Shown here: in pieces, positions 1 to 32,647 of the stretch | Layout: every line of letters begins with the position of its first letter | Position numbering within the stretch: position 1 is the stretch's first letter | IMG/VR virus record: IMGVR_UViG_2778261180_000005 | Reading direction: 5' to 3' (one strand) | Origin: a virus | Lineage: Duplodnaviria; Heunggongvirae; Uroviricota; Caudoviricetes | DNA length: 36,121 nucleotides | Translations under genes and position numbers: made by a program | Notes under the pieces: generated by a model | Told to the model about the DNA's origin: nothing | Database searches by the model: none | Seen by the model: only the letters and a program-made list of their open reading frames with translations

Positions 1-387
1 ATGTTCAATATCATGATTCGTAAATTTGGCGAGATGACTTTCGAGAAAGCTGGTGTTGCTCGTACCGAAGAAGAAGCAATGGCCTTAGTTCTGGTAGCAC
101 TGAGATCATCACCTGAGATTATCGACGCTGAATATGTAGCTGCTGAGGGTGAGATTAAAGAGATTAAAGCGGTGGCTAAGGAATTAGGTGTTAAAGGTTT
201 CCGTAAGCTGAGACTATCCCGCGAGTCATATGTAATTGGTAAGCAAGGACAATACCTAGATGAGAATACCGTGATTATTCTACTGAATAAGATCACCCGC
301 TATGGTTTCCAGATTGAGCAATATAAAACGTGTTTCGAATTATACGAAAAAGGTTTGCTGGATACTCTGACCATCGTTCGCGCTTAA
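1..387 (+). CDS. hypothetical protein (128 aa; could extend upstream of the window)
   Basis: Intact ORF starting at the window edge, followed by hairpin GGTGGG-7nt-CCCACC (402-420). No recognisable motif. Confidence 0.5.
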   Translation: MFNIMIRKFGEMTFEKAGVARTEEEAMALVLVALRSSPEIIDAEYVAAEGEIKEIKAVAKELGVKGFRKLRLSRESYVIGKQGQYLDENTVIILLNKITRYGFQIEQYKTCFELYEKGLLDTLTIVRA

Positions 388-443
388 TTAATTTCTAATT
401 TGGTGGGTGTAATTCCCACCGCTGTTTAAATGGAGAATCAAAC

Positions 444-524
444 ATGTTAGCTTTTATCTCATTCGTGGGAGGTAGTCTCACAACTATGATTAGTCTTGCT
501 TATCTTGTCGTTAGTATGGGGTGA
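444..524 (+). CDS. putative 26-aa hydrophobic peptide (MLAFISFVGGSLTTMISLAYLVVSMG)
   Basis: Below the ORF-track cutoff. GGAG 8 nt upstream of the ATG. Almost entirely one hydrophobic helix. The next mini-ORF starts 3 nt after its stop. Confidence 0.35.
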   Translation: MLAFISFVGGSLTTMISLAYLVVSMG

Positions 525-527
525 GCA

Positions 528-653
528 ATGAAACAATTTCATGATGGCATTTCATCTAAGACATTCAAGAAAGAATATAGCGGATTGTGTATTAACTGGA
601 TGGATTTGATTGGCGCGGTTGTGTTTGGTCTGATTATTAGTATTAACTTTTAA
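528..653 (+). CDS. putative 41-aa membrane peptide
   Basis: SD GGGGTGAG just upstream. C-terminal hydrophobic helix LIGAVVFGLIISINF. Followed by the palindrome ACGATATA-AA-TATATCGT (653-670). Confidence 0.4.
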   Translation: MKQFHDGISSKTFKKEYSGLCINWMDLIGAVVFGLIISINF

Positions 654-698
654 CGATATAAATATATCGTAATTCAAACAACAAGAGGAAATTCTACT

Positions 699-944
699 AT
701 GAAAAAGATTATCGCTGGTGTTGTTCTTGCTCTGGGTTTGGTTGGTGCTGCGAATGCCGAACAATATGTACAGGGTGATAGTGTCAAACGTGCTGCCGTT
801 GCACCTTCTTTAAATCAACTGTGTACTGAATTAGCACAGGTTGCCGGAGTTGGTGACGATGACGACTTTATTACTGCGTGTGTATGGAGTCATATCGAGG
901 ATATTAATAAACGTGATGCAAAACTAACTGGAAAGAAATATTAA
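699..944 (+). CDS. small secreted protein (81 aa) with Sec signal peptide
   Basis: N-terminus MKKIIAGVVLALGLVGAANA/EQ is a canonical signal peptide with an AxA cleavage site. SD GAGGAA. A terminator follows. Confidence 0.7.
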   Translation: MKKIIAGVVLALGLVGAANAEQYVQGDSVKRAAVAPSLNQLCTELAQVAGVGDDDDFITACVWSHIEDINKRDAKLTGKKY

Positions 945-960
945 TGACTTACTAACCAAT

Positions 961-1000
961 GCCCCTATCGTTATAATACGCGGTAGGGGCGTTTTTGTTT
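961..1000 (+). terminator. rho-independent terminator
   Basis: GCCCCTATCG / CGGTAGGGGC stem (one G.T pair), 10-nt loop, then TTTTT. The loop contains TATAAT (973-978). Confidence 0.7.
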
Positions 1001-1009
1001 GGAAATGGT

Positions 1010-2689
1010 ATGAAAACTAAACTGTATTCGTATATTCGCTTCTCGTCTATGAAGCAAGCGGATGGTAGTTCTTATGAACGCCAGAAGAGAACAGCCGCAG
1101 AGATAGCCGCAAAATATGATCTTGAGCTAGTTACAAGCTATCAGGATTTTGGTGTATCTGCATTCAAAGGGGCTAACAGTAGAACAGGTGCACTATCTCG
1201 CTTTCTGGATGAGATTGGTCGATCCGTTCCGGTTGGTAGCTGGCTGGTTGTGGAAAACTTAGACCGTATCTCTCGCCAATCCATCATTGAAGCACAAGAG
1301 CTATTTCTCTCGATTATCCGTAGGGGAATAACTATCGTAACTGGCATGGATGGTAAGGTCTATAGCAAGGAATCGGTTAATGCCAATCCTATTGATTTGC
1401 TGTTGAGTGTCATGTTGTTTGCGAGAGCTAACGAGGAAAGTCAGACTAAGCGCAATCGTACTAACTCAAGCGCATTGATTAAGATTAAAGCTCATCAAGA
1501 AAATCCACAAAATCCGGCTGTTGCAATCGAGGAAATTGGAAAGAATATGTGGTGGACTGATACCACATCTGGTTATGTGCTTCCTCATCCGGTCTTCTTC
1601 CCTATTGTTCAGGAAGTTGTGGAATTACGCAGGAATGGACGGTCAACCGCCGAGATACTGGATCACCTTAACGCGACATACACACCACCACCAGCCGCAA
1701 GTCACAAGAGGCATTCAAACTGGTCACGGGCAATGATTGAAAGGTTGTTCCATACCCGCGCTTTGATTGGTATCAAGGAAATCTCTGTAGATGGCGTTAA
1801 GTATGAGTTAAAGGATTATTATCCTCGTGTGCTAGATGACGCTGAGTTTTATCACCTTAAGAAAAGCATTGGTGTTAGAGCATGTAACTATGGAGACAAG
1901 GAAGAAGTTAAACCTATTCCCTTGCTTAGTGGTGTTGGTCTATTGAAATGTGAACATTGCGGTTCCGCTATGGTTAAGGTGAAAGGAACTAACAAACGTC
2001 CTAACCAATATCGTTATTCATGCGATGCAATGCGCTCTAGTCGTATTGCATGTGTGCATACAAACTGGAGTTTTCGAGGTGATCAATTAGAGAAAGCTGT
2101 ATTGCAATTGCTGGCTGATAAAATCTGGATTGCTGAGGATAAGGCTAATCCGGTTCCGGCTTTGAAAGTACAGATTGATGAAATATCACGCAAGATTGAT
2201 AACCTGATTACCCTTTCTGCTATGACAGGAGCAACGAAGGAGCTAGCCGATCAGATTACTACCCTCAATAGCGAGCGTGAAACACTCTACAATCAAATTA
2301 AGATGGCAGAAGAGGAAATGTATTCTGTTGACTCTCAAGGCTGGGAGAAGCTCGCAGAATTTGATTTAGAAGATGTTTACAACGAGGATCGCATTAAGGT
2401 CCGGTTTAAGATTAAGCAAGCTCTAAAACGGATCGGGTGTAGCAGGATTGACAAGTACAAAAACTTGTTTGTACTGGAATACATCGATGGCAAGACCCAG
2501 AGAGTTGTAATAGAAAATTCAAGAGGACCGAGGAAAGGCCGGATCTTCGTTGATTTGAAAACTATCAATGATAGACAGATTCTGGAAAGTAACGGGCTTG
2601 TTTTGCATCCATGTTTAGACATGCTGACAGATAAGAACTGGAAACCAGAAGAGGAAATACCAGGTCCATTACAGGAATTTGGAATTTAA
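1010..2689 (+). CDS. large serine recombinase (integrase-type), 559 aa from ATG 1010
   Basis: N-terminal resolvase-type catalytic domain (YSYIRFSSMKQ...SYERQ). Central recombinase domain. Zn-ribbon CEHCGS...YSCD...IACVH. C-terminal coiled coil. The track start at 995 is a TTG inside the terminator T-run, so ATG 1010 is preferred. Confidence 0.9.
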   Translation: MKTKLYSYIRFSSMKQADGSSYERQKRTAAEIAAKYDLELVTSYQDFGVSAFKGANSRTGALSRFLDEIGRSVPVGSWLVVENLDRISRQSIIEAQELFLSIIRRGITIVTGMDGKVYSKESVNANPIDLLLSVMLFARANEESQTKRNRTNSSALIKIKAHQENPQNPAVAIEEIGKNMWWTDTTSGYVLPHPVFFPIVQEVVELRRNGRSTAEILDHLNATYTPPPAASHKRHSNWSRAMIERLFHTRALIGIKEISVDGVKYELKDYYPRVLDDAEFYHLKKSIGVRACNYGDKEEVKPIPLLSGVGLLKCEHCGSAMVKVKGTNKRPNQYRYSCDAMRSSRIACVHTNWSFRGDQLEKAVLQLLADKIWIAEDKANPVPALKVQIDEISRKIDNLITLSAMTGATKELADQITTLNSERETLYNQIKMAEEEMYSVDSQGWEKLAEFDLEDVYNEDRIKVRFKIKQALKRIGCSRIDKYKNLFVLEYIDGKTQRVVIENSRGPRKGRIFVDLKTINDRQILESNGLVLHPCLDMLTDKNWKPEEEIPGPLQEFGI

Positions 2690-2725
2690 GCGGCCTAAAT
2701 CGACGTATAACGAGCTAAAACAGTT

Positions 2726-2750
2726 AAGGGGTACATTCGTACCCCTTTTG
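2726..2750 (+). terminator. rho-independent terminator (possibly bidirectional)
   Basis: GGGGTAC-ATTC-GTACCCC followed by TTTT. AA upstream pairs with the T-run. Confidence 0.75.
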
Positions 2751-2762
2751 AATTTAATTGCG

Positions 2763-3761
2763 TTAGAGAGCCTCTAAAGGGCTTAAATCGAGTTCTAAGT
2801 TTTCCGGTGTTAAATCAGCTAACGGTGCATTCATCCACTGCGATAAATCTCGTTCTATGTCTTCATCACTAATGTAGTTGTTCAGATTGATTGCGTTGGT
2901 ATCATCAAAATACATTGGCTTAGATGGGTTGGTGTGGATGTATTCATTGATGAATGATTTAACATCTTTCAGCTTGCTAATCGGTAGCGTTTCTGTGAAT
3001 CCGCTATTCATTACCTTACGTGGGATTTTCTTGCCCTGAATATTCTTTTTAATCCCCATTTCTAAATCACCAGCTTTCCATCCAATGTTAAACAAATGTG
3101 AGCATTCAAAGGTGATTTTCTCGCTGGTGTGCTTCTGGTGTTCTCTTACCCGTTGCATCGGATCTTTGCGAGTGGTAATTCCATATTTGAAAAACTTCTC
3201 GCCAACACGAATTAGATAAAAGTGCATAGGGCGCTGTGCAAACTTGTTTCTGATAACCTGTTTTCTACCATTCTGAATTGATTTAAGTACACCCCTAACC
3301 AAAGGGCATGTTAACCCGCCTTGTCTGCGGTTATTGTGTAAATCACCTTTCTTGTGAATCTTTCCGTGGCACTTACAACGAAGAATTAGTTTAGTGTCAA
3401 CACCCTGATAAGGTTCAGCCAGACCTAACACATCCCACCCTATCGGCTTGTAGAACTTGCGAGCGTTTTCTAAGTGTTCTTCTTCGGTAAATCTAAACTT
3501 CTTCTTAGGCGGTGATACTCTATCTTTGCCAGTAAACTGACCAGTTAGAACATGACTAATACATGGCGTTTTAACCTTTCCGTTAACTTCTATGCAAACT
3601 TTGGTGTTCTGGAATGGTTTCTTTACAGGAAGCACAAAACCACTGTATAACCATCCATGCGCTTGACAAACTTTAATGATTCTGGTTTCATATTCGACCG
3701 GAGGGGTCGCACGTTTGCTTTTTGCGGTAAATTCGATATCCTTTGCTAAAGTAGTATTCAT
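2763..3761 (-). CDS. T5orf172/GIY-YIG-superfamily nuclease-like protein (332 aa from ATG 3761)
   Basis: Motif HFYLIRVGEKFFKYGITTRKDPMQRVREH ... SGFTETL. Two N-terminal Cys/His-containing repeat modules. SD GAGGA before ATG 3761. The upstream 47 codons of the track ORF lack an SD. Confidence 0.7.
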   Translation of the reverse strand: MNTTLAKDIEFTAKSKRATPPVEYETRIIKVCQAHGWLYSGFVLPVKKPFQNTKVCIEVNGKVKTPCISHVLTGQFTGKDRVSPPKKKFRFTEEEHLENARKFYKPIGWDVLGLAEPYQGVDTKLILRCKCHGKIHKKGDLHNNRRQGGLTCPLVRGVLKSIQNGRKQVIRNKFAQRPMHFYLIRVGEKFFKYGITTRKDPMQRVREHQKHTSEKITFECSHLFNIGWKAGDLEMGIKKNIQGKKIPRKVMNSGFTETLPISKLKDVKSFINEYIHTNPSKPMYFDDTNAINLNNYISDEDIERDLSQWMNAPLADLTPENLELDLSPLEAL

Positions 3762-3796
3762 ATTAGTGTCCTCGAAAATAATAAGTTCACTACTAT

Positions 3797-4249
3797 TTAT
3801 TGAGAAAAATTTGTTGTAATGGTTGAAGACCACGGGCATGAGTAGTAACCACGACCGCCACCGATCAAGCAAATGGTCGGACGGAAGCCAGTAAGATCGC
3901 AAAATGAATCAGTGTCATGTGCTGGGGAACGATGCTCTGCTTCGTTAGAGAAAATGTTGGCTACCGGAGATTCCACTTTAACTTCCGGTGCTTCTTCAAC
4001 ATCTGACTTAACTTCTTCGACCACTGGTTCAACTGCCGGAGATTCTTCTTTTGTTTCTTCAATGACGATCTCAGGTTCTTTCATTGCTTCAACCAGAGAC
4101 GGATCAACTTCGTCGAATACCACTTTATCATCTGCGGTGTCTGCTGCCAGAATAAGATCGTTAATACTGGTTCCTTCTGCCGGAGTTTCTTCTTCCATTT
4201 CGGAAGCCAGTTTAGTTAATTCGGTTTCTACGAACTCGATCATCAACAT
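3797..4249 (-). CDS. hypothetical highly acidic protein (150 aa)
   Basis: About 30 D/E in the first ~100 residues. Same strand as the 332-aa nuclease-like gene and 35 nt upstream of it. Weak SD. The antisense S/T-rich ORF is judged an artefact. Confidence 0.45.
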   Translation of the reverse strand: MLMIEFVETELTKLASEMEEETPAEGTSINDLILAADTADDKVVFDEVDPSLVEAMKEPEIVIEETKEESPAVEPVVEEVKSDVEEAPEVKVESPVANIFSNEAEHRSPAHDTDSFCDLTGFRPTICLIGGGRGYYSCPWSSTITTNFSQ

Positions 4250-4289
4250 TAAAGGTAATGCCTATAAGATAAATTAAGTGAGGTTTTTT

Positions 4290-4871
4290 ATGATGAATGA
4301 TGTGCGCAAAGCATGTGATATCCCGTTCAATTTTATCCGCACCAAAAATGGCAAAGCGCCATCACATCCAATTGATATGGAAGCAAGGATCGTGACCCGT
4401 ATTGAAAACGAGGGTTTACCCTTGATTTATCACGGATTCAAAGGTGAGTATAAATCAATCAATAGCCGTATTGTGCTAGAGTGTGAAAGCTGCGCAAGAA
4501 TCAGAGATATAACAGCAAAACAATTCTTACATAATCCTACTGTGTGCCCGTGTAATCGTAGCAAATATGACAACAAATATAAAAATGGGCAACCAGTATT
4601 ATATGTTATGCGGTGTGGTGATGTGGGTAAGGTTGGAGTAAGTCACAATGTGTTGACGAGAAAACATAAGCTAAGATGCCAGAATAAGATGAAATTTGAT
4701 ATCATCGAGACTTTCGAATTTCAAGACGAAAAAGACGCATACGCGGCAGAATTGTTTATCAAGAAAAACCTAGTAAAAGGTGATTTTGATATTAAAGAAG
4801 GTGCTACAGAAACGTTTGTTTATAATGAAAAAATGGTCAGAAATATAGCTAACGTCGCCAGCATATTCTAA
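4290..4871 (+). CDS. T5orf172/GIY-YIG-like protein (193 aa from ATG 4290)
   Basis: Motif PVLYVMRCGDVGKVGVSHNVLTRKHKL ... EGATETF. The N-terminal module (EARIVTRIENEG...LECESC...CPCN) is paralogous to the modules of the 332-aa protein. SD GTGAGG. Confidence 0.65.
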   Translation: MMNDVRKACDIPFNFIRTKNGKAPSHPIDMEARIVTRIENEGLPLIYHGFKGEYKSINSRIVLECESCARIRDITAKQFLHNPTVCPCNRSKYDNKYKNGQPVLYVMRCGDVGKVGVSHNVLTRKHKLRCQNKMKFDIIETFEFQDEKDAYAAELFIKKNLVKGDFDIKEGATETFVYNEKMVRNIANVASIF

Positions 4872-4872
4872 C

Positions 4873-4902
4873 AAAAAAGCGCCCACTAGAGGCGCTTTAA
4901 TT
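4873..4902. terminator. bidirectional rho-independent terminator between convergent genes
   Basis: AGCGCC-7nt-GGCGCT stem flanked by an A-run upstream and a T-rich run downstream. Confidence 0.7.
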
Positions 4903-5256
4903 TTATCCATTCCACCGTGATTTTTTTGATCTGGAATCAATATGCGTAAAGGTTTTATATTTTCCTAAGCCGTATTGAGTAGGATATTTCCCATCAAGAT
5001 AAGCATGGACAATATCAGGGGAGACACCCTTGACCACAATGTCAGCCGCACGGCCTCGAACGTGATAGCTGTTGGTTGCCCCGCCTACATTCTTGTTATG
5101 AGCCGGGCAACGGTTGCCACTGTTAATAATCACTGGTTTACCGAAGTGTTCTCGTACATCCTCAAGAATTACCAGTAATTCAGCGTCGATTGTATCATAA
5201 TCACATTTTCCGCATTTACATTTAAATTCCTTGCGAGAAAAATGTTTGCTTAACAT
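4903..5256 (-). CDS. peptidase M15 family cell-wall hydrolase (endolysin candidate)
   Basis: SGNRCPAHNKNVGGATNSYHVRGRAADI ... THIDSR carries the H/D/H zinc ligands of M15-type peptidoglycan peptidases. Last gene of the late operon. SD GGGGG. Confidence 0.85.
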   Translation of the reverse strand: MLSKHFSRKEFKCKCGKCDYDTIDAELLVILEDVREHFGKPVIINSGNRCPAHNKNVGGATNSYHVRGRAADIVVKGVSPDIVHAYLDGKYPTQYGLGKYKTFTHIDSRSKKSRWNG

Positions 5257-17091: not shown

Positions 17092-20000
17092 TTACCCTAA
17101 TTTAGCTTCAATTGCAGCAAGACGTTCACGAAGAAGTTTATTTTCTTCGCTCATTTCTTGGACCGCTTTAATTAAAAGCGCGTTCACTGCGGAGTTTGAA
17201 ATTGTTAAAATTTCTTCTGGGTTATCAAGAGATCCGACATTAGAAGTGCTAACAGCTTCCGGTAAAATTTCTTGTAAATCCTGTGCGATAATACCAATCT
17301 CATGTGCGATGACTTCTCTGTCAGAAAGAGACTTAACTTTATCGTAGGTTTTAACTTTTAGTTTATTTACCTTATCTACCGCATTTTCTTCGTAGTCTTC
17401 AACGTTAATTTTCAGACGACGGTCGGAACGAATATAAACATCGTTACAGTAAACCGACGCACTAGATGTGAAATCACCATTTGCAGCCCATGAATACCAG
17501 CCGCCTTTGTTCATATGCATCATTACGGTAGCTTGACCACCGCCAGCATGAACACCCATTGCCGCAAGATGATCAACACCCCAATGAGTTGCTTTCCAAA
17601 TTGAATATGCTTGGGTATGTGAATCCTGACAATCTAAGAGAATACCAGCAGGACGGTTGCGCCAGTCATCCCATGCACCACCAGAAACCTCACCACGGAT
17701 AAGAGCGTATTCACCATTATATGGAACACGTTCTCCCGCTTTAATCATTGCACCCTGGAAGTGATGACTAAATGAACCCCCATGATTATTTCGTATATGT
17801 AAAATACCATCATCTGTAGCCCAGATAACAGCCTTTTCCGATTCGCTGTCATCTCTAAACCAGATATGGCGTGCACCAGTTGAGTTTTTGATGGTTATTC
17901 CGGTAGGTCCATGCACGGTCAAAGCACCAGCTACATCAAATAAAACGGTGTTATCTGTTCTACGTTCAGTATAGAAGTGATAACCTTTGGAATCGCCGAT
18001 TTCCATTACTGCCGCGCGTCCAACTTCTGAATTTCCCCAATTGTTGATAGAGAATCGTTCAGAGCTATTATTCATCTGATTTAGGTATAATGTACCGTCA
18101 GTGAATGTTTCGCCAAAGAATCTAGTTTTAATGCTATTGGTTCCGGTGCGTTCAAATTCGGCTAAAAATCCTTTTGAGTCACGAAGACTTAAAACGTTAT
18201 TTCGACCTGTATTGCTTGCCCCCCAATGGACGAGTTCCATATAGTCCATAGATTGACGAGAACCAGATTTAAATAAAAGGTTGTCTTCGAGACGAGTGCT
18301 ACCATCAATTCCCAGGTGCAAACAACGAGCGGTTTCAGTACCACCTAAATATAGTCCACCATCATCAAAATTATAGCTGAATGGTCTGCGATTATTCCAA
18401 CTACCAAAAGAATCTTTTAAATTGGTAGTAAGAATATGGAAGCTAGAACCGTCATTGCGTAACATCAAACCATAGTTACCGCCTTTAACAGCCAAACGAG
18501 CATTTTCAGATAATGCAACTTCGCTATTCATTACAATTTTCTGGCCTTTACCACCAGTAATATGTAATTCACCGTCTTCGATCAAATTTATCGAGTTTTG
18601 ACCGTTATCGTTCCACCAAATAAAATCTTTGGTCGTCAAATCACCAAAACCAAACCAGCCATTACGAACATCTTGACCAGTGCGATAATCCATAAAATTA
18701 AAATGGCTTGCTTCGTTTGGTCCTCGACGAATATCAATACCAGCATTAGAACCGGAACCTAAGCCACCATCGATGGTCAATCTACGAATATGCAAACCGG
18801 TTACAGCCGAAAGCAATAATTGTTGGGTTACATCGGTATATCCAGTAGCAAGACGATAATTTTGGTCATCAACACTTTCGTGCCAGATAGTGGCAGGAGC
18901 AGAACTACGGAAGCGACGCAACATCTTTTTAGCATTTGTCGGTTGTTCGTTCATATGCTCAATGTCGTATTGGCCTTGATGGTTTCCAGCAAAATTTAAC
19001 GTTCCACGGTTGCTAAAGTTATTGAACGATGAAATGTTAAGAGCATCAAAAATTTCATCTGCAACAGGTTTTTCACCACCCAGATATTCAGGAGTATCCA
19101 ACAGGTTTAAAGAAACACCACCGGAAGAAACTTGATATTCTGCTAAAACAAATCCTGTATGTGCACCGTAGTAAGCGTAAAGATCGTAATTATCACCATC
19201 GGTTGGAATAGCGCAAAAATGTTGTTCATAATGCCAAATAGTATAATACGCATTGAATACAACACCTTTCGGGCTATTGTTGCCGCATCGAATCACCAAT
19301 TCGATAATATTGGCTTGTCCATTCATCCCGACGTTATAACCGTTACCACCAACCAAACGGATCTTAGCGGTGCGACCGTGTTGCTGTGGCATTGTCAAAG
19401 TGCCTAGTTTAAACCAACCACCCTCGATCCCAAAATTAAGCGTCTTCTGGAACAGTCGGTCAATTTCTGCTTTCGAATATGCGCCAATTTCAGCCGGAGT
19501 AGGTTTATCGCCTTCATGATACATGCGGTGAGAATATGACAAGTTACCCAATTCATCGTAGCCGTATGTTCTTACCGTATGAACCGGATTAGACCCATAA
19601 GTGAACTCAAAGCCACGAGCATGATTAACACCAGATGGATGCGGAACATGCAAGATCATTGCAATATGACCCGCCAGGTCATTCATGCGGAATGCACCAA
19701 AGTAGTCAAGATTACGCGCACTCGGATCATCAAAATAGTTTGCGGTCTTAGACAACAAATAACCATCAGTATAAGTGTTTACGTGTTTTTTGATGTACTT
19801 GCCATCACTCGATCCGTCGGCTGCATCAATACGGCTTTCTAAGCGTGCCAGTTCAGAATCAGTGTAAGACTTGTTATTGTCAACTTTGCTATGAATTGCT
19901 GAATTTTTGGCTTCAACATCACGGGTTAATGCTGCGACGTTATCCGCTGCCTCTTGCTTATTAGCCGCAATCACACCAGTAAGGTTATTGTAGGTGTCAG

Positions 20001-20613
20001 TTAACTGATTTTCCGCATAGACTTTATTTGCTGCGATAGTGCGGTCAGTTTCTGTCTTAATCAGATCAACTTTGTCATTGATTGCTTTGTCATTACTTGC
20101 GATTGTCGCGTCGGTACGGGATTTAATATCATCAACTTTTTTATTGATGCGGGTGTCCAGTTCCTGAGTTGCTACAGCAGCCGCATTTTTATTAGCGTTG
20201 ATGGTATCCGACAATTCAGCTTTAACACCAGCAAGATCGGAAGCAGCTTTATTTTTATTAGCTTCGATTGTCGCGTCGGTTTCGCGTTTAATTACATCAA
20301 CTTTATTGTTAATTTCTGCATGATTTGCTGCGATAGTAGAATCAGTAGTTTGTTTAATTTCATCTACTTTAGCGTGAATATTGCGGTCATTTACTGCAAT
20401 TGTGCTATCCAATTCTTGTTTGTTAGCATCAACTTTAGATTCTAGTGCCGCGTGAGTTTCAGGAGAAACAGAGATTTGAACTACTTCATGATCTCGGTCT
20501 TTGGTAAAAATAACATGGTCTTTAAGGTTGATTGCCACCTCACCGACCTGTAATTGTTCCGGCGTTGGCTTTTTGCCAGAAACATTAGTTCGTTTAAATT
20601 GGATTGATTGCAT
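17092..20613 (-). CDS. long tail fibre with C-terminal intramolecular-chaperone (peptidase S74) domain, 1173 aa
   Basis: Fibre-type N-terminus (IQFKRTNVSGKKPTPEQLQVGEVAINLKD). About 22-aa TDxTIAANxxxINxKVDxIK shaft repeats. KPTPAEIGAYS motif. C-terminus YIRSDRRLKINVEDY...GIIAQDLQEILPEAV is typical of S74 autoproteolytic chaperones (endosialidase, T5 pb1). Confidence 0.9.
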   Translation of the reverse strand: MQSIQFKRTNVSGKKPTPEQLQVGEVAINLKDHVIFTKDRDHEVVQISVSPETHAALESKVDANKQELDSTIAVNDRNIHAKVDEIKQTTDSTIAANHAEINNKVDVIKRETDATIEANKNKAASDLAGVKAELSDTINANKNAAAVATQELDTRINKKVDDIKSRTDATIASNDKAINDKVDLIKTETDRTIAANKVYAENQLTDTYNNLTGVIAANKQEAADNVAALTRDVEAKNSAIHSKVDNNKSYTDSELARLESRIDAADGSSDGKYIKKHVNTYTDGYLLSKTANYFDDPSARNLDYFGAFRMNDLAGHIAMILHVPHPSGVNHARGFEFTYGSNPVHTVRTYGYDELGNLSYSHRMYHEGDKPTPAEIGAYSKAEIDRLFQKTLNFGIEGGWFKLGTLTMPQQHGRTAKIRLVGGNGYNVGMNGQANIIELVIRCGNNSPKGVVFNAYYTIWHYEQHFCAIPTDGDNYDLYAYYGAHTGFVLAEYQVSSGGVSLNLLDTPEYLGGEKPVADEIFDALNISSFNNFSNRGTLNFAGNHQGQYDIEHMNEQPTNAKKMLRRFRSSAPATIWHESVDDQNYRLATGYTDVTQQLLLSAVTGLHIRRLTIDGGLGSGSNAGIDIRRGPNEASHFNFMDYRTGQDVRNGWFGFGDLTTKDFIWWNDNGQNSINLIEDGELHITGGKGQKIVMNSEVALSENARLAVKGGNYGLMLRNDGSSFHILTTNLKDSFGSWNNRRPFSYNFDDGGLYLGGTETARCLHLGIDGSTRLEDNLLFKSGSRQSMDYMELVHWGASNTGRNNVLSLRDSKGFLAEFERTGTNSIKTRFFGETFTDGTLYLNQMNNSSERFSINNWGNSEVGRAAVMEIGDSKGYHFYTERRTDNTVLFDVAGALTVHGPTGITIKNSTGARHIWFRDDSESEKAVIWATDDGILHIRNNHGGSFSHHFQGAMIKAGERVPYNGEYALIRGEVSGGAWDDWRNRPAGILLDCQDSHTQAYSIWKATHWGVDHLAAMGVHAGGGQATVMMHMNKGGWYSWAANGDFTSSASVYCNDVYIRSDRRLKINVEDYEENAVDKVNKLKVKTYDKVKSLSDREVIAHEIGIIAQDLQEILPEAVSTSNVGSLDNPEEILTISNSAVNALLIKAVQEMSEENKLLRERLAAIEAKLG

Positions 20614-22425: not shown

Positions 22426-24405
22426 TCATTCGGAGATGTGAAGAACTTTCAGAGCTTCCGGCTGGGTTACAACATAGTCCAGATCTACCCAGATACGCGG
22501 AACGATAGCGGACTGTGCACGGTAGGTGGTGTCGTCCATATCCAGTTCCAGACCGCCCCACTCACCGATAGTAATACCGGAGAAGTCACCCAGAACGATG
22601 TGATCTGCCGGGATAACACCAGAAGTAACTACATCGTAACCAGCCAGTTTGCCGTTTTCGATGATATAACCGGAAACACCGTTATCTTTCAGGGTAGATT
22701 CCAGTTCAGCAGCAGTTGCACCGCTCATCGCAAACTTGATCGCCTGAGCAGGAACGCCAGCGTCGGTCAGTGCTGCAATTTCTTTCAGGAAGTCTTTGTA
22801 GCTGAAAGCGGCTTTCTTAGTAACACGGCTTGCATCAACCAGTTGTTTAACCAGACCAGCAGGACCGCGCTCATTGTCTTTGTCAGACAGAATCAGTTGT
22901 TCCAGTTTGATGCGAACAGCCTGGTTGATGTGATCAGTGATCAGGGTAGCGATACCCGGAACGGTTTTAATGCTCTGACGGCTGATCGGGTTGCCACCAG
23001 CAAAAGTCTTAGGAGACAGTTTCACGTTTGCAAATTCAGCTTTGCCTTCCGGTGCAGCACCGTTTTCATCAACGAAGCCGAAAGCGTCAACGCTGGATTT
23101 AGTCATTTTTGGAATAGCGGTCGGAGCAGTCAAGCCACTGTAAACAGTCACACCCAGACGACCCAGAACGGATTCCGGCATCAGCATTTCGATGTAGGAT
23201 TCAGTCAGCAGTTTTTCGTCGGTGATAGCAGTCAGGTCAGCTTTGGTGTTACCAGCAGCAGCAGCACGCATAGCAGCAGCAGGAACGAATACAGAGCCAC
23301 CACGAGCAGCACGACCACGCTGCATAGTTGCAGTAGCAGCCATTGCGGAATATTCAGCTTCATGAGCGCCGAGCACGTCGCCATCTACCAGGGAGCGGAT
23401 TACGTTATTAAGATCGAAAGTTTTTTCCATTTTAGAGTCCTTAATTTGTTGTTCGTTGTTACGTTGAGCAGTAGCGATTTTATTTAGTGCCTTAGTGCGG
23501 AATGCTTCCGGCGTCATGTCTTTAATTGCTAATGCGCGTTTCAATTCTTCGTCATCAATATTTAGTTCGCGTGCAATTTCGCGAATTTCTAATTCGTCTT
23601 CTTCGGAACGTTCAGCCACTTCTTCGATTTTTTCTTCTTCAATCGGAGCGGCTTCACGTTCTTCTTTTACTTCTTCTGCTTCCCGAACAGTTGAACTATC
23701 ATCATCAACACTTTCAGGATGTTCAGCGTCTTTTCCGTCTTCGAGATTTTCATCTTCTTTATTCTCTTCAACTTTCGGTTCTTTATTTTCTTCTACCGGA
23801 GTTTCTTCAACCTGAGCGGGTTCTTGTTCTTCTTTGATTTCTTCGATTTGTTCTTTAGTCATATCGCGTTTAGCCTCCAAATTAACTGTGATAGTATTTA
23901 GAGAGCGATTTAAACCGACCGTATCGTCAGCAGGAACTGTCACAAATGAAATTTCAAAGGGTGCCCACTTAGTAACAATCAATTGTCCTTTAGCGTAATC
24001 GATGTGATACTCTTTAATGTCATAGCCGACCGATATTTTTTCCATCGTACCTTCAATGACTTTATTACGAATATCATTAGCCAAAGTCCCATGCTTAGAG
24101 AATTTAACCAGAGCACGGCCTACGTTATCCGCATCGATTCGAGCGTTACAGACAACACCAATGTGATTATCGAAATTATGATTGAACAGCAACGGAGCGT
24201 TATTATTCAGGCGAGACAGATCAACCGCTTCCGGTGTATGTACCAGAATTTCATCTAATACCACCATTTCTTGATTTTGCTCATCCCAGAATTGGCGCTG
24301 GTAAGGCTGGGTACTGGAGAAAGCAATTTCAAATTCGTATTGATCGTTATGCCCTTCGTTAATAACTCCACCGTAACCGTTAAGATCGCGGCGAAATTTA
24401 AGCAT
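22426..24405 (-). CDS. prohead protease / major capsid protein fusion (659 aa)
   Basis: N-terminal ~170 aa are prohead-serine-protease-like (LLFNHNFDNHIGVV). An acidic E/K-rich linker follows. The C-terminal ~350 aa are HK97-fold capsid-like. Codon usage is strongly optimised. Confidence 0.85.
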   Translation of the reverse strand: MLKFRRDLNGYGGVINEGHNDQYEFEIAFSSTQPYQRQFWDEQNQEMVVLDEILVHTPEAVDLSRLNNNAPLLFNHNFDNHIGVVCNARIDADNVGRALVKFSKHGTLANDIRNKVIEGTMEKISVGYDIKEYHIDYAKGQLIVTKWAPFEISFVTVPADDTVGLNRSLNTITVNLEAKRDMTKEQIEEIKEEQEPAQVEETPVEENKEPKVEENKEDENLEDGKDAEHPESVDDDSSTVREAEEVKEEREAAPIEEEKIEEVAERSEEDELEIREIARELNIDDEELKRALAIKDMTPEAFRTKALNKIATAQRNNEQQIKDSKMEKTFDLNNVIRSLVDGDVLGAHEAEYSAMAATATMQRGRAARGGSVFVPAAAMRAAAAGNTKADLTAITDEKLLTESYIEMLMPESVLGRLGVTVYSGLTAPTAIPKMTKSSVDAFGFVDENGAAPEGKAEFANVKLSPKTFAGGNPISRQSIKTVPGIATLITDHINQAVRIKLEQLILSDKDNERGPAGLVKQLVDASRVTKKAAFSYKDFLKEIAALTDAGVPAQAIKFAMSGATAAELESTLKDNGVSGYIIENGKLAGYDVVTSGVIPADHIVLGDFSGITIGEWGGLELDMDDTTYRAQSAIVPRIWVDLDYVVTQPEALKVLHISE

Positions 24406-28529: not shown

Positions 28530-29132
28530 ATGCTAATTAATCAGCAACAAAGAGATGAATTAGAATTAGCCTTGTCTTGTACCGATCATGAATATCGTTT
28601 ACCAGTTAAGCATAAGCATTTAAAAACCGACTACACAACATCTGGCTTTAGTCGTGAGGAAGCGAAAGAGATTTTAATAGAGTTTTACCGCGATAATGGT
28701 TATACAGACGTTCACAACTTCTTTAAGAAGCATAGAACATCACATACAGAGTTTCGGAGAGTCCGAGATTGGTTTGATTTTGATATCAAGCGTTATTATC
28801 GAGTGGATGACGGTCCTATCTATCGGTTGCAGTGGACACCGATCAGGGAAGTGTTGAAACAGAAGAGATTGAATCACGCAATTACACGCTATCGTAACGA
28901 GGCTTTCAAGAAAGGCTATGGTGATACAAGGGAACTATTCGTTGAACTCGCTAACGTGCGTTATAGCCACTATTACAACGATCCTAAAGGGTTCTTTGAA
29001 GTGCTTCGCAAGGTTGATATAAGTCGGGGTACATACTATTCACGGTTGAAGAAGTACGGGATTAAGGCAGAGTTCTTTATGAGTATTGACGATGGAGAAC
29101 TTTTTCCGATAAAATGTAAGTCCTCTAAATAA
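28530..29132 (+). CDS. DNA-binding protein with two tandem copies of a ~55-aa HTH module (200 aa)
   Basis: Internal duplication. The second module, [30 protein letters not shown], matches the 75-aa and 60-aa proteins. SD GGGGGG. Confidence 0.7.
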
Positions 29133-29166
29133 AGGTGAACATTCACTTTAATTTGGAGAAATGACT

Positions 29167-29394
29167 ATGACTACTAAAGCTACTCGCGGTCGTCCTTGCC
29201 GTTTTAACGCTGAACAGATGGCTGATATTGCCTACGCTTACTATACAGCGGATCGTGGTAAGGAAGCGAAAGAACAGATTCTTAGTGAACATGGGATCTC
29301 AATCGCCCAATTCTATAAGAATATGAAGAAGTTAGACATTAAATTCTATGTTCAGATCGGTGATGGTCAGATCGTAGAAGCAACAGGTTTTTGA
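29167..29394 (+). CDS. small HTH protein, paralogue family (75 aa from ATG 29167)
   Basis: RGRPCRF...GISIAQFYKNMKKLDIKFYVQIGDGQIV. GGAG lies 8 nt before ATG 29167 but only 2 nt before ATG 29161. Confidence 0.7.
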   Translation: MTTKATRGRPCRFNAEQMADIAYAYYTADRGKEAKEQILSEHGISIAQFYKNMKKLDIKFYVQIGDGQIVEATGF

Positions 29395-29409
29395 GTTTTG
29401 ATTCTCTTT

Positions 29410-29433
29410 GCCACTCTTCGGAGTGGCTTTTTT
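29410..29433 (+). terminator. rho-independent terminator
   Basis: GCCACTC-TTCG-GAGTGGC followed by TTTTTT. Confidence 0.85.
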
Positions 29434-29568
29434 GTATGTAAAACAATCTCGCCAGTTTTGGTGAGATCTATAGATGCCCTCAAAACTGAGGGGATGTGCT
29501 TAAAGTTCAGCATATCTATCTAAGTGGTTGATTCTTTCTAGAAATCCAAATCTGGATGCATCAGATAC

Positions 29569-29598
29569 AAAAAAGCCCAGCGCAATTATGCGCCGGGC
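29569..29598 (-). terminator. rho-independent terminator after the Rha-like gene
   Basis: Minus strand reads GCCCGGCGCA-TAAT-TGCGCTGGGC followed by TTTTTT. Confidence 0.8.
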
Positions 29599-29604
29599 GA
29601 TTAA

Positions 29605-30435
29605 TCAGATCCCAAAATCAACAAGGGAAATTACGTTACCTGATTCACGAATCTGTTTAGCAGCTTTGTTTTGAATCAGAATAGTGTTGTTCGGCTTAGG
29701 AAGATTCAGAGTTGCTTTTTGTTCTTCTTCCAGAATACCCAATTCAACCAACACAGGAAGAACATCAACCGTAAACTCAAGTTGGTAGTGAGCATTCATG
29801 CGGCAGAAAGACAGAGAAGAGTCATTAGCAACATACCCACACGGCTTGTTATTTTCATCGTAGACGCGCTCAATGTAGCCAGCAGTACGCAAGGCCGTTA
29901 GTGCTTCTTTAACCTTCGTAGCGCCCTTTTTAGCGCCTAACAGACGGGTCATTGAATGGCTATCTACTGATTTGCGAACATGAAGTTCAATCAGCTTTTT
30001 ATTTTCGCGAGTTTTCTTTAATGCCAGTTCGATCCAGTCTGTTTCTTCAAAGTCTGCATATGGATTAACGGCTAAACGTTCCTGACGCAGTTTTTCATTT
30101 TCTTCTTTCAGTCGCTTCCATTCCTGAATAACAACCATTCGACGCTTAACATCGTAACCAGTGACAAGAGTCAGCGTCATTTCTTCGTCTAAGTGATATA
30201 CTGGTTCTTTAACAGCATATCCTAAGTTATTGATTCTCTCGACAAATTCAGTTTTGAGCTGATCGATAATACCTAAAGATTCGTACATTTCGCGAATATC
30301 GCGCATTACATTGCTGTGCTTCTTATCGGTAAATTCAGCGATCTGACGAGAAGACATGGTCAGCGGTTTGGTGTTATCAACAACCAGAGACATTGAAGCA
30401 GTTTTAACAGTATTCATAGTAGTAACAGTATTCAT
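29605..30435 (-). CDS. Rha-family phage regulatory protein with C-terminal winged-helix-like domain (276 aa)
   Basis: MSSRQIAEFTDKKHSNVMRDIREM is the Rha N-terminal signature. The first 18 nt are tandemly duplicated (MNTVTT/MNTVKT). Confidence 0.8.
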   Translation of the reverse strand: MNTVTTMNTVKTASMSLVVDNTKPLTMSSRQIAEFTDKKHSNVMRDIREMYESLGIIDQLKTEFVERINNLGYAVKEPVYHLDEEMTLTLVTGYDVKRRMVVIQEWKRLKEENEKLRQERLAVNPYADFEETDWIELALKKTRENKKLIELHVRKSVDSHSMTRLLGAKKGATKVKEALTALRTAGYIERVYDENNKPCGYVANDSSLSFCRMNAHYQLEFTVDVLPVLVELGILEEEQKATLNLPKPNNTILIQNKAAKQIRESGNVISLVDFGI

Positions 30436-30538
30436 AGTAAAAATTCCCCTTAAACGGTTTAGTGATTGATTCTCCTGTTTTTAACTGTCCACACGCCAAC
30501 GGCGCGCGGAACAATTTTATTTATAAGAAGTTTTTATC

Positions 30539-30685
30539 TCATTTAGATTCAGCAATCGCGCGATCAATTTCTTCTTGAATGCGACGCTGGCGTTCATGGA
30601 AGTCAACCATTGAGAAATTCAGGTTTGGGGTCCACGGTTTGCGGTTCGGGTTTTTACGTCCATCAATTTTCTTAGTAGTGTTCAT
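30539..30685 (-). CDS. putative small basic protein (48 aa)
   Basis: Not in the ORF track. MNTTKKIDGRKNPNRKPWTPNLNFSMVDFHERQRRIQEEIDRAIAESK. SD AGAGGA 8 nt upstream. About 50 nt downstream of a strong promoter. Confidence 0.5.
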   Translation of the reverse strand: MNTTKKIDGRKNPNRKPWTPNLNFSMVDFHERQRRIQEEIDRAIAESK

Positions 30686-30743
30686 AATTAACATCCTCTT
30701 TACAAATCTAGGTCAAATAGGTTCAAAGTTGTCAAGTGCGATA

Positions 30744-30772
30744 ATCATAAAAAAGTCATAAAATTTTGTCAA
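30744..30772 (-). promoter_or_regulatory. sigma70-type promoter driving the 48-aa ORF and Rha gene
   Basis: Minus strand has TTGACA (30772-30767), a 17-nt spacer, and TATGAT (30749-30744). Confidence 0.7.
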
Positions 30773-30785
30773 TACCCCTTGACAA
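30766..30785. promoter_or_regulatory. operator-like palindrome TTGTCAA-N6-TTGACAA overlapping the -35
   Basis: Perfect 7-bp inverted repeat. Further TTGAC(A/C)-type half sites at about 30711, 30721, 30729 and 30798. Confidence 0.5.
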
Positions 30786-30807
30786 GACGCCAAAGGGTTG
30801 ACCTAAC

Positions 30808-31260
30808 TTACAGCATATCTAAGCCTTCATCGTAACCGTAGAAGCCATTCTGAGAAGAGAAGCAGATTGGTGCGTAGTCGTCGTCATCTTCGTCTTGTTC
30901 ATCGTGTTCTGGGGCTTCCTGAGCGGGTTGTTTACCATAATCAGCCATAATCTGGTCAAGATCGGCGATCCCATAGTAAGAGCCTAAATCAACGTCATAT
31001 TCACGAACATCAAACGGCAGGTCATCACGAACAATAATTGCCGGAATGTTGTTGTATTGTTCACGACCTTCATCAGTAAAGCAGTCTACGATCACCGTAG
31101 GGCGACCATTACGTTTAAGAGCATAGAAAGCAGTTGAGAAATTGGAGTCTTCGGAATGACGAATGATGTTATAACCACGATTAGCGAAAACATGCATCAT
31201 AGCCAGATTATCATCATGGTTCAGACCCAGAAGAATGAAAGGAGTTTTAGTATTGATCAT
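30808..31260 (-). CDS. hypothetical protein with highly acidic C-terminal tail (150 aa)
   Basis: SD AGAGGA. C-terminus EAPEHDEQDEDDDDYAPICF...YDEGLDML. No family recognised. Confidence 0.7.
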   Translation of the reverse strand: MINTKTPFILLGLNHDDNLAMMHVFANRGYNIIRHSEDSNFSTAFYALKRNGRPTVIVDCFTDEGREQYNNIPAIIVRDDLPFDVREYDVDLGSYYGIADLDQIMADYGKQPAQEAPEHDEQDEDDDDYAPICFSSQNGFYGYDEGLDML

Positions 31261-31356
31261 AGTGGAAATCCTCTAAAAGAAAGTGAATCAAAGTAAGTTC
31301 ACTATTATTTATAACGAGAAATTTTTGTCTAATTTGAAAGGAATTGGTATTCAGTC

Positions 31357-31858
31357 GGCTTCGCCTCCTTCATAGATTTTGATTAAATCATCATCAAAAC
31401 GAAGAAGTATCTTTAGAATATAAGAATCTTTCTTTTGGAGAAATAATAATCCGGAAGCAATTTAGCAACCGAAGGTTGCAATCCCGAAGGGATACCAATA
31501 CCTTTCATGATCATTAAAGTGATCTAGAATCATCTAGTAACCAGTTAACTACTATTATCTTCAAAGTGATTATTACTATCTTTCTAGAATCAGTTAGTAA
31601 CTAGTTTAAAATCCCTTTCAAGAAAATCCTTTCAGAAGTGATTCTCGATGCCACGCAGTGGCGTCGCAGACGTTTGAGAGTGAGCGAAGCGAGCGAGCAA
31701 ACTAGTTAATTCCTTCTAAGACCATCTAGTATCATCTAGTTTAAATTAGTGTTACTAGAAGTAATTGGTTAGCGCTTCGCGCAGTCGGGCTACGCCCTCC
31801 TAATATCTTTTTGGTTATTTGTTGTTTTTGGTTTTACACATGAGCGTAGCGAATGTGT
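31357..31858. repeat. cluster of G/C-clamped mini-hairpins with trinucleotide GNA (or complementary TNC) loops
   Basis: GGC-TTC-GCC 31357. GCAACC-GAA-GGTTGC 31465. ATCCC-GAA-GGGAT 31481. GATGCCAC-GCA-GTGGCGTC 31647. GC-GAA-GC 31684. GCGC-TTC-GCGC 31772. GGGC-TAC-GCCC 31787. ACACAT-ga(GC-GTA-GC)ga-ATGTGT 31836. Confidence 0.75.
31523..31606. repeat. two copies of a 24-bp CTAG-rich repeat exactly 60 bp apart
   Basis: TCTAGAATCATCTAGTAACCAGTT (31523-31546) and TCTAGAATCAGTTAGTAACTAGTT (31583-31606), 21/24 identical. Related CATCTAGT motifs at 31724-31740. Confidence 0.75.
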
Positions 31859-31890
31859 TATATAATATCTATGCACGCCCGATCCCCCGC

Positions 31891-32133
31891 TTTTGCCCCT
31901 CACTAAGTTAATGTTTTATAAAGAGTTTTTCTCACCAATCCTTTTCGGGGGCAAATTTCAGGGGCAAAAATTAGATTTTCAGGGGCAATTATTGGCATTT
32001 CAGGGGCAAAAATGAGGGGCAAAATCACTGTTTCCCAGAATTTCAGGGGCAAAAATAGTGGGTTTCAGGGGCAAAAATGGGATAGTGAAATCTAGGGGAT
32101 TTTGGTTCAGGGGCAAAATTCAGGGGCAAATTT
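31891..32133. repeat. iteron array: nine direct copies of (T)TTCAGGGGCAAA(A) plus one inverted copy
   Basis: GGGGCAA cores start at 31948, 31961, 31982, 32003, 32016, 32046, 32068, 32110 and 32123. The inverted copy is at 31893-31899. Confidence 0.9.
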
Positions 32134-32135
32134 CA

Positions 32136-32185
32136 TAGTGTAGGGCTAGTGTAGGTTTGAAAATCCTTTGTTGACACTGTGTAGG
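32136..32185. promoter_or_regulatory. three GTGTAGG operator-like repeats around the promoter
   Basis: TAGTGTAGG at 32136-32144 and 32147-32155. TGTGTAGG at 32178-32185, inside the -35/-10 spacer. Confidence 0.6.
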
Positions 32186-32199
32186 ATCGGTGGTATACT
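32171..32199 (+). promoter_or_regulatory. near-consensus sigma70 promoter with extended -10
   Basis: TTGACA (32171-32176), 17-nt spacer, TGgTATACT (32191-32199). Confidence 0.8.
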
Positions 32200-32465
32200 T
32201 GAAAATTCGAGATAAATATGTTATAATATTTGTATTGAAAGTGAAAATTTACCGATTTTCCTTCCTATTGTTATCACTGTGTTAAATTGTTATATGTCTG
32301 TGAAGATTTGGATCTGAGAGAAAATCTTGTAACAAATCTTTACAATTCATAGCTCAATTAATGCTCACCGCTTTAGCAAAAAGTGCTATGCCTTTTTCTA
32401 AATTGATTGAATAAACATCAATTTGGTTAATTCGTGTTCTTCTCTTTAGCAATTCGTGCTGCGGT

Positions 32466-32512
32466 TTAACACATTTAACACGCCTGATAACATCCAAATA
32501 ACATTTTAACAT
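32466..32512. repeat. five phased (T/A)TAACA(C/T) repeats in AT-rich DNA
   Basis: TTAACAC at 32466 and 32475. ATAACAT at 32487 and 32498. TTAACAT at 32506. Spacing is 8-12 bp. Confidence 0.5.
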
Positions 32513-32612: not shown

Positions 32613-32647
32613 AAGAAATCATTAATCCAGATTTAGGAGGATTCAAG

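Follow-up and report, generated by a model that had tools for sequence, protein, structure and literature searches.

A large serine integrase of an Escherichia coli prophage inserted in hicB: predicted attachment sites, related targets and a candidate promoter

The DNA analysed here, hereafter the window, is a 36,121-nucleotide (nt) stretch corresponding to the Caudoviricetes record IMGVR_UViG_2778261180_000005 of IMG/VR. Near its left edge (1010-2689, plus strand), it carries int, a gene coding for a large serine recombinase of 559 amino acids (aa). The question raised by this locus is that of the role of the enzyme, as the only prophage junction visible in the window, located in the host gene hicB, lies at the opposite extremity. 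A preliminary description of the same sequence had left two readings open: either the left prophage end is just outside the window, with int about 1 kb from its attachment site, or the enzyme is internal and does something other than integration. The first one is borne out by the left attachment site (attL) junctions of the relatives found in complete Escherichia coli genomes, and it is highly probable that int is the integrase of a temperate siphovirus-like prophage of ~35.8 kb inserted in E. coli hicB.

The recombinase and the two ends of the prophage

The window is an E. coli prophage: relatives of its first 25 kb were found in 60 of the 5426 complete E. coli genomes and positions 1-2760 are present in 58 genomes, while the right 350 bases, corresponding to the 5' part of hicB, for this reason match nearly all E. 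coli genomes. In UTME-9, whose Int protein is 100% identical, 37 bp separate the end of the 3' fragment of hicB, flanked on its outer side by ydcR, from the base homologous to window base 1, and the same distance of 37 bp was found in ETEC1717/1718 (99.9% nucleotide identity over positions 1-2760); the other junction, which the preliminary description had proposed to look for, is thereby located by way of relatives. Among the contigs carrying the exact Int protein, all eight that were inspected show the succession ydcR, short gap, ORF1 (the first open reading frame, ORF, of the prophage) and int, and the hicB attL junction sequence could be read in seven of them. From crossover to crossover, the UTME-9 prophage measures 35,809 bp. 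The start of int is ~1.05 kb from the attL crossover in the E. coli relatives, and its stop (2689) is 33.1 kb from the crossover of the right attachment site (attR, 35796-35797), in agreement with the ~33 kb given earlier for the distance to the hicB junction. Judged from these relatives, the left prophage end is ~42 bp outside the window and the element is ~35.8 kb long; the 33-kb puzzle arises because the window edge hides the other junction.

The alternative is that of an internal recombinase performing inversion, multimer resolution or regulatory rearrangement, with another enzyme in charge of integration. Within the window alone, the 33 kb to the only visible junction speak in its favour, as does a 30%-identical YbcK-type homologue that is internal in lambdoid phages and has no assigned role. 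These points are met by the junction lying 37 bp past the window edge where the same gene occurs in other genomes, and by a PHROG scan of 40 candidate ORFs (mostly of at least 56 aa, three ORFs of 51-52 aa being left out), which found no second integrase, tyrosine integrase or transposase; neither the tyrosine integrase nor the transposase envisaged by the preliminary description at the true left end is thus seen in the scanned ORFs. Together with the attachment sites and the enzyme alleles described below, this makes an internal enzyme extremely improbable.

As for the gene itself, the ORF as listed runs from a TTG codon (995-2689, plus strand), and the ATG at 1010, which is the start also used by RefSeq in relatives of int, gives the 559-aa protein. 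The earlier assignment to the large serine recombinases is upheld by three Pfam domains found in the order canonical for this family, namely Resolvase (PF00239, aa 6-153, E 7.5e-15), Recombinase (PF07508, aa 198-286, E 1.3e-07) and Zn_ribbon_recom (PF13408, aa 310-368, E 6.8e-10), and by the catalytic motif Y8-I-R10-F-S12-S-M-K-Q16, completed by E82-N-L-D85-R86-I-S-R89. An alignment of 20 Int homologues, down to 35% identity, showed that S12, R10, Q16, D85, R86 and R89 are invariant, together with the cysteines 314, 317, 338 and 348. Among the PHROGs, the protein belongs to the integrase family phrog_95 (E 2.8e-56). A small serine invertase or resolvase of the Hin, Gin or Tn3 type (~180-200 aa, a catalytic domain with a C-terminal helix-turn-helix, and sites within one replicon) was ruled out, as neither the length of Int (559 aa) nor its recombinase and zinc-ribbon domains fit this type; the match to the invertase PHROG was only weak (2e-11 vs. 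3e-56 for the integrase PHROG).

Based on the Pfam matches, the alignment and an AlphaFold model (mean predicted local distance difference test score, pLDDT, of 77), Int consists of a catalytic domain (aa 1-150, positions 1010-1459, with the Ser12 codon at 1043-1045), a recombinase domain (aa 196-290, 1595-1879), a zinc ribbon (aa 309-356, 1934-2077) with Cys314/317/338/348, a predicted coiled coil (aa 382-437, 2153-2320) and a predicted extra C-terminal alpha/beta domain (aa 441-559, 2330-2686). In the model, the catalytic domain is accompanied by a long helix (helix E, 127-164), a helical domain covers residues 196-289 and a beta-ribbon residues 312-356, after which two long antiparallel helices (382-406 and 410-437) form the coiled coil, and the additional alpha/beta domain spans residues ~460-540. 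A fold search of this model against the PDB gave 9dxf, 9dxd, 9y66 and 9dxh as top matches (E 5e-16 to 2.5e-14), with PhiC31 integrase (9rah) and the LI integrase-attP complex (4kis) among the further ones, in a range reaching E 1e-7; the best matches are all large serine integrases, several of them with attachment-site DNA bound. A sequence search of the PDB with Int yielded a catalytic-domain structure alone (3guv, E 3e-05), and Int is therefore distant from the studied serine integrases. As a whole, its sequence and predicted fold identify Int as an ordinary phage large serine integrase, previously uncharacterised. The exact protein is indexed in 739 blocks of a public collection.

Two small plus-strand ORFs precede int. 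ORF1 (1-387, 128 aa, phrog_14908, a family of unknown function) is the first prophage gene inside attL, its ATG being 42 bp from the crossover TT in the relatives. It is accessory, since in some relatives it is replaced or preceded by other small ORFs and it is absent in Edwardsiella. The second one (699-944, 81 aa), lying between attL and int, has an N-terminal signal-peptide-like segment (MKKIIAGVVLALGLVGAANA) and no family match, and is swapped for a 137-aa ORF in some relatives.

Attachment sites, target genes and specificity

The attachment sites were deduced from the alignment of K-12 hicB, the attL of UTME-9 and the attR of the window. The bacterial site (attB) reads ...GGCGAGTAATCTCCTG-TTTAGGTTT-GCCAATTCGCCTGG..., attL reads ...CTCCTG-TTTAGGTTT-CCCTAATATAATGCCCCCACAATAAC... 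and attR reads ...GTTATTGGGGTTTACAACA-TTTAGGTTT-GCCAATTC..., so that TTTAGGTTT (35789-35797) is the core common to attB and to the phage site (attP). As the base following this core is C in attL and G in both attR and attB, the exchange took place inside it. The predicted crossover is the last TT of the core (35796-35797), by homology with the ycdX-type sites presented below. Centred on this dinucleotide, attB is ...CTCCTGTTTAGGT-TT-GCCAATTCGCC..., and the attR of the window (35770-35823) is made of a P arm (35770-35795, GTTATTGGGGTTTACAACATTTAGGT) and a B' arm derived from hicB (35798-35823). The attR junction was found in 37 and the attL junction in ~35 of the 5426 complete E. coli genomes, vs. 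thousands for the uninterrupted site.

The reconstructed hicB-type attP, ~54 bp long, is GTTATTGGGGTTTACAACATTTAGGT-TT-CCCTAATATAATGCCCCCACAATAAC, with the junction sequence TACAACATTTAGGTTTCCCTAATAT. The imperfect dyad around a central dinucleotide, suggested earlier as something to look for, is indeed present: attP has a 26+2+26 structure on TT (GTTATTG...CAATAAC), the arms of which agree at 14 of 26 positions, a score reached by 0.27% of the 54-mers of the window. The matches comprise an outer GTTATTG, clear in both attP arms, and an inner TTAGG; of the eight half-sites of the hicB and ycdX types, seven show a TTnGG motif at this inner position and one, the B' arm of ycdX, has CCCGG. Concerning an inward shift by 5 bp of the zinc-ribbon motif in attB, as for LI integrase, the candidate GT(A/T)A lies 7-8 bp inward and is too weak to be claimed.

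According to the mechanism of the family, integrase dimers would bind the ~54-bp attP and a shorter attB inside hicB, Ser12 would cut both sites with a 2-nt stagger at the central TT, and the half-sites would be exchanged by subunit rotation before religation of the DNA, the products being an attL ~42 bp left of the window and the attR at 35770-35823. The geometry of the sites is the part of this scheme provided by the present comparison, and we infer the strand-exchange chemistry from the family. Excision should require, in addition, a recombination directionality factor (RDF) encoded by the phage.

The P' arm is polymorphic at one and the same target, as read from the attL of six relatives. 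Immediately right of the crossover it has CCCTAAT, GCCTAAT or GCCAAAT; the second and third of these variants come close to GCCAATT, the sequence of attB. Its middle part is either ATAATGCCCCC or ATCATGTACCC, independently of the target. This polymorphism suggests a relaxed recognition of that half-site.

About 20 relatives are inserted in another gene, ycdX, between ycdY and ghrA. The ycdX attB of K-12 (...CATATTTGGGA-TT-TCCGGGATGG...) is 100% identical in more than 3000 genomes, and the corresponding attL and attR are ...TTTGGGA-TT-CCCTAATATCATGTACCCACAATAAC and GTTATTGGGGGTTGACTACGTTCGGG-TT-TCCGGGATGG, respectively. Around the crossover, these sites read GGGA-TT-TCCGGG for attB, GGGA-TT-CCCTAAT for attL and CGGG-TT-TCCGGG for attR, and length bookkeeping gives ...GTTCGGG-TT-CCCTAAT... 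for the ycdX-type attP. In the register producing the observed attL and attR, attP and attB agree at the central TT alone and mismatch on either side, which fixes the crossover dinucleotide for this pair and, by homology, gives that of the hicB type. A 2-bp overlap is the hallmark of a serine recombinase and, being too short for a tyrosine integrase, excludes a mechanism of that kind, which also contradicts the reading of Int as an internal enzyme assisted by another integrase. The 26+2+26 geometry is common to the ycdX-type and hicB-type attP, the dyad of the former being stronger (18/26).

A third group is inserted in codB. It comprises 06-00048, whose prophage is IS3-deleted, and contigs carrying P0053, two of which were inspected (L035 and L036) and both adjoin codB. 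The codB-type attP has a 27+2+27 dyad, with 16 of 27 positions in agreement. Insertion within an ORF, put forward by the preliminary description for the hicB junction, is thus seen in three genes.

The differences between enzymes of different targets were then located on an alignment of ten integrases with a known target, of which six are of the hicB, three of the ycdX and one of the codB type. A total of 32 fixed differences separate the hicB from the ycdX enzymes, 26 of which are in the two DNA-binding domains: 16 in the recombinase domain (196-290), where no position is polymorphic within the hicB group, and 10 in the zinc ribbon (309-356), where four are. With the single one of the linker (291-308; two polymorphic positions), the 196-356 cassette holds 27 fixed changes, and five more are in the C-terminal domain (441-559; two polymorphic positions). 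No fixed difference was found in the catalytic domain (1-150), in residues 151-195 or in the coiled-coil segment (357-440), with respectively 32, one and three positions polymorphic within the hicB group.

Two catalytic-domain alleles, 32 positions apart and with a synonymous divergence (dS) of 1.4, assort independently of the target: one is found in the window-like hicB enzymes and in the codB enzyme, the other in the remaining hicB enzymes and in all the ycdX ones. From this sorting, int is a mosaic gene in which the 196-356 cassette follows the target. Between targets, the dS of this cassette is 0.36 and its non-synonymous divergence (dN) 0.10, vs. a dS of ~0.1-0.2 in most other segments and of 0.29-0.44 in the short 151-195 linker, which favours the exchange of a diverged module over the accumulation of a few point mutations. 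The P arm also co-varies with the target, being TTTACAACATTTAGGT for hicB and GTTGACTACGTTCGGG for ycdX. Target choice would be set by the recombinase and zinc-ribbon domains (aa 196-356): relatives sharing the catalytic, coiled-coil and C-terminal parts but having another 196-356 cassette and another P arm are inserted in ycdX or codB. This co-segregation of DNA-binding-domain alleles with the target gene is a further point against an enzyme not involved in integration.

Transcription of int

The preliminary description had int bracketed by two good terminators, and both hairpins were recovered by the terminator scanner and by folding. The first one, directly 5' of int (958-993, plus strand), has 14 pairs, 7 of them G-C, and an 8-nt loop (-22.9 kcal/mol, z -4.3), and is followed on the plus strand by TTTGTTT. 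The second one (2726-2747, both strands), with nine pairs (-14.7 kcal/mol, z -4.0), is a bidirectional terminator-like hairpin separating int from the accessory, lysis and tail genes, which converge on it from the minus strand. The region 1-5000 is enriched in terminator-like sites (14 vs. 3.5 +/- 1.9 in shuffled sequences). In our reading, the 958-993 hairpin closes the predicted transcription unit of ORF1 and of the 81-aa ORF, and int would form a unit of its own, delimited by a terminator at either end.

The same description had pointed to a TATAAT in the upstream loop as the sole obvious promoter of int. The presence of the hexamer, its location in the loop and the lack of another obvious promoter were confirmed, but its position is 972-977 instead of 973-978. 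It is the only perfect -10 hexamer upstream of int on the plus strand, and constitutes a candidate int promoter. The chances are about even that the int messenger RNA is produced from a weak promoter with its -10 hexamer in the loop of the upstream terminator. Read-through from upstream would be stopped at the 958-993 hairpin, whereas the int transcript would begin at ~984, ~7 nt past the -10, within the 3' arm; as such a start leaves out the 5' arm, this transcript could not form the terminator.

The conservation of the hairpin lends this proposal comparative support. Ten E. coli relatives, two of which have a different upstream gene, show hardly any variation in the 958-993 hairpin, and in the 2726-2747 hairpin of the relatives the stem is invariant, the variation being confined to the loop. 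Beyond E. coli, Edwardsiella and two Salmonella lineages keep a hairpin with TATAAT in its loop and a T-run. The stem is E. coli-like in one of the Salmonella lineages and shorter (GCCCCUAU/GUAGGGGC) in the other, where the loop contains UAUAAU. The Edwardsiella hairpin, GCCCUGC-UUAUAAUA-GCGGGGC, differs from the E. coli stem (GCCCCUAUCG) by two compensatory double changes and one G-C to U-G change, as compared by eye after separate folding. The context of the hexamer is TTATAATA in E. coli and Edwardsiella and ATATAATG in one of the Salmonella lineages. In E. coli, Salmonella and Edwardsiella alike, the hairpin is followed by a U-run, and the int start comes 16-22 nt further on.

Several observations count against a promoter nested in this way. 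The scanner called no sigma-70-like site upstream of int on the plus strand, and the -35 found at a 17-bp spacing before TATAAT is TTACTA, with three of six matches; it is weak in all lineages having the hairpin (3-4/6). A covariation count on a MAFFT alignment of the hairpin gave no compensatory pair, the Edwardsiella sequence being misaligned, and an Enterobacter homologue of 39% identity lacks the hairpin. The hexamer might therefore be incidental, in a hairpin which is simply the terminator of the preceding genes, int being transcribed by read-through or from another, unrecognised promoter. TATAAT occurs 27 times in the window, both strands included, and may arise by chance in A+T-rich loops. 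Nevertheless, the hexamer stays in the loop across four lineages in spite of their different stems and flanks, the spacing from hairpin to ATG is conserved, and low read-through is expected from a terminator of this strength with its T-run. An incidental TATAAT is accordingly a serious contender, its probability being only slightly short of even.

The proposal that these prophages form a natural re-targeting series, with 87-93% identical enzymes on a common scaffold differing by the exchange of one cassette and of the P arm, so as to have orthogonal specificities for hicB and ycdX (the codB cassette being more diverged), and that they also possess an int promoter nested in a terminator loop, is a tentative one, and we consider this combination to be possible rather than probable. 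If true, it would offer a compact and tractable residue map of integrase DNA specificity, and a reusable insulator-promoter part.

Phage content, excision and comparison with known integrases

The PHROG scan recovered a complete packaging, head, tail and lysis module, with a terminase, a portal, a protease-capsid fusion, a major tail protein, a tape measure, a distal tail protein, a tail tip, a long tail fibre and an endolysin, as well as a Rha/Ant-type regulator. By this gene content, the element is a temperate siphovirus-like prophage.

Four points weigh against the view of Int as the working integrase of such a phage. Firstly, attL is outside the window, and the left end rests on the relatives. 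Secondly, the exact hicB-type attP junction pattern had no match in the viral or metagenome contig collections. Thirdly, no sequenced phage isolate carries int, the best identity being 31%, and as neither an attP junction nor an isolate was found, excision and virion production are undocumented. Fourthly, both codB junctions have TTG where K-12 codB has TTA, at a synonymous GGT/GGC position, so that the recipients probably had the synonymous GGC allele; a search with the hypothetical GGC codB attB returned no perfect match. Assuming that allele, the codB crossover is narrowed to TGCC, and either strains with the GGC allele alone can be lysogenised or the crossover assignment is incomplete.

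Some of these data may be taken as signs of a domesticated or defective prophage, in which int inserted the element once and is no longer used, neither excision nor virions nor a functional directionality factor being left. Besides the missing attP junction, such a state would be in keeping with the lack of a cultured phage relative apart from tail-fibre segments, with the lack of a recognisable repressor or replication gene, and with the insertion sequence (IS) elements that degrade some copies. The predicted extra C-terminal domain of Int is also of a kind that has been suggested to interfere with or block RDF binding in some integrases (PMC12286644). On the other side, nearly all of the 58 genomes have an intact int, and its overall ratio of non-synonymous to synonymous substitution rates (dN/dS) of 0.18 is indicative of purifying selection. 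The element also has a complete module for packaging, head, tail and lysis. Moreover, in unrelated strains (from pig, human, river and cattle) the very same site is occupied by prophages 5-8% apart, and three sites are used, which implies many independent and recent integrations. A defective prophage is thus judged unlikely.

A metagenome scaffold of 35,782 bp and an Edwardsiella contig of 35,941 bp, which had the appearance of free phage genomes, proved to be prophages, as the sequence of each begins in host DNA. Concerning the directionality factor, none of the small prophage ORFs matched a known excision factor family, and the two ORFs proximal to the attachment sites (1-387 and 35402-35707) offer no safe candidate, each of them missing in some relatives. 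The latter is the last plus-strand gene, and is followed, before the P arm, by a terminator-like hairpin with a T-run (35727-35755, plus strand; -12.8 kcal/mol, with a weak z of -2.2).

At the host side, the 5' part of the HicB antitoxin gene, hicB', occupies 35771-36121 on the minus strand (by comparison with K-12 hicB, L003 3509-3925), the window ORF beginning at an upstream in-frame ATG. The HicB reading frame is interrupted after codon 102, at a point lying between helices of the helix-turn-helix (ITQQELARRIGKPK before the cut and QEITRLFN after it), and the truncated protein is extended by five phage-encoded codons (CCKPQ). As truncated HicB keeps its N-terminal domain, the HicA toxin may stay neutralised in the lysogen, in which the autoregulation of hicAB may nevertheless be lost. 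After a precise excision, hicB, ycdX or codB would be intact again.

The remainder of the element has few known relatives. Among sequenced phages, whole-genome DNA matches are limited to T-even tail-fibre segments, and the prophage appears to belong to a lineage without a described isolate. The 659-aa major capsid protein (22426-24405, minus strand) is a protease-scaffold-capsid fusion, with 27-31% identity to its nearest cultured phages (the Rhodobacter RcCronus group, Halomonas phiHAP-1 and Dinoroseobacter R4C) and 47% to Escherichia phage DCP80. The 1173-aa tail fibre (17092-20613, minus strand) has a T4 gp37-like C-terminal half, the DNA of which is 87-95% identical to the long-tail-fibre distal subunits of virulent T-even phages. 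This identity, vs. the unmatched remainder, suggests a recent exchange of the receptor-binding module with T-even phages. Downstream of int, positions 2763-4871 form a variable cargo slot of T4-like accessory genes, which in the window code for two phrog_681 'endonuclease'-like proteins, one of them with a CapR domain, and for a Phage_Inh_N / 'inhibitor of protease' homologue; in five relatives, a GIY-YIG nuclease, a UvsW-like helicase or UvsY was found in this slot.

In the ~7 kb of non-structural region (28530-35707), no CI-type repressor, Cro, excisionase or replication protein could be recognised, the matches being limited to the Rha/Ant-type regulator (29605-30435) and to a weak terminase-small-subunit-like protein (34548-35105). 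An ORF-free, A+T-rich segment of ~1.1 kb (31261-32353) contains an iteron-like array at 31944-32143, with at least eight copies of TTCAGGGGCAAA(A/T) at a 21/22/43-bp spacing, inverted copies at 31884-31902, and a second repeat family of four copies of TCTAGAATCATCTAGTA at 31523-31748. From its arrangement, the array is probably a replication origin or a regulator-binding array, and the product of a neighbouring 313-aa ORF without a family match (32943-33884) could be the initiator. No Rfam match was obtained anywhere in the window.

As a whole, genome comparison allows attP, attB and the crossover dinucleotide of an uncharacterised enterobacterial integrase to be defined. Its close natural variants, with three intragenic targets, are useful for understanding how integrases read DNA, which is a genome-engineering aim, and are possible orthogonal integration tools native to E. 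coli. The genes hicB, ycdX and codB can also be listed as prophage insertion points at which host genes are inactivated or truncated.

Orthologues of Int were found in Salmonella (73% identity) and Edwardsiella tarda (58%), at the same ycdX position. In Edwardsiella, int is within ~230 nt of the attL junction with no gene between, and the 39%-identical Enterobacter homologue directly adjoins a host gene. The closest phage proteins are gp53 of the Burkholderia phage Bcep176, the serine recombinases of Bcep22 and JC1, and the E. coli YbcK-type recombinases, with 28-31% identity over 80-85% of the length. They have the three Pfam domains of Int, but such an identity does not allow common sites to be inferred, and the YbcK-type genes are internal in lambdoid genomes (e.g. 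at ~40 kb of 49 kb), not next to an attachment site. No paper on a serine-integrase prophage in hicB, ycdX or codB was found in our search.

The prophages SPbeta, in spsM, and A118-like, in comK, split a host gene that is restored by precise excision. As in the present element, the coding sequence is interrupted by a prophage with a serine integrase; nothing here indicates a regulated excision linked to host physiology. Among the rows listed in the tables of Durrant et al. 2022 (PMC10083194), neither int nor its attachment sites figure, a statement valid for those rows and not proof of absence from the catalogue; Ec05 of the same work is a different protein.

The integrases of LI/A118 and PhiC31 and those of the 9dxf, 9dxd, 9y66 and 9dxh structures are like Int in their domain order and in the coiled coil inserted in the zinc ribbon, as well as in their sites, with an imperfect-dyad attP of ~50 bp, an attB that is shorter and a non-palindromic crossover of 2 bp. 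They also share with Int the insertion into a host ORF and the proximity of the gene to attP. Int differs from the characterised structures by its sequence (13-17% identity in structural alignments) and by its extra C-terminal alpha/beta domain of ~100 aa. Finally, most studied large serine integrases come from Gram-positive bacteria, whereas the host of Int is an enterobacterium.

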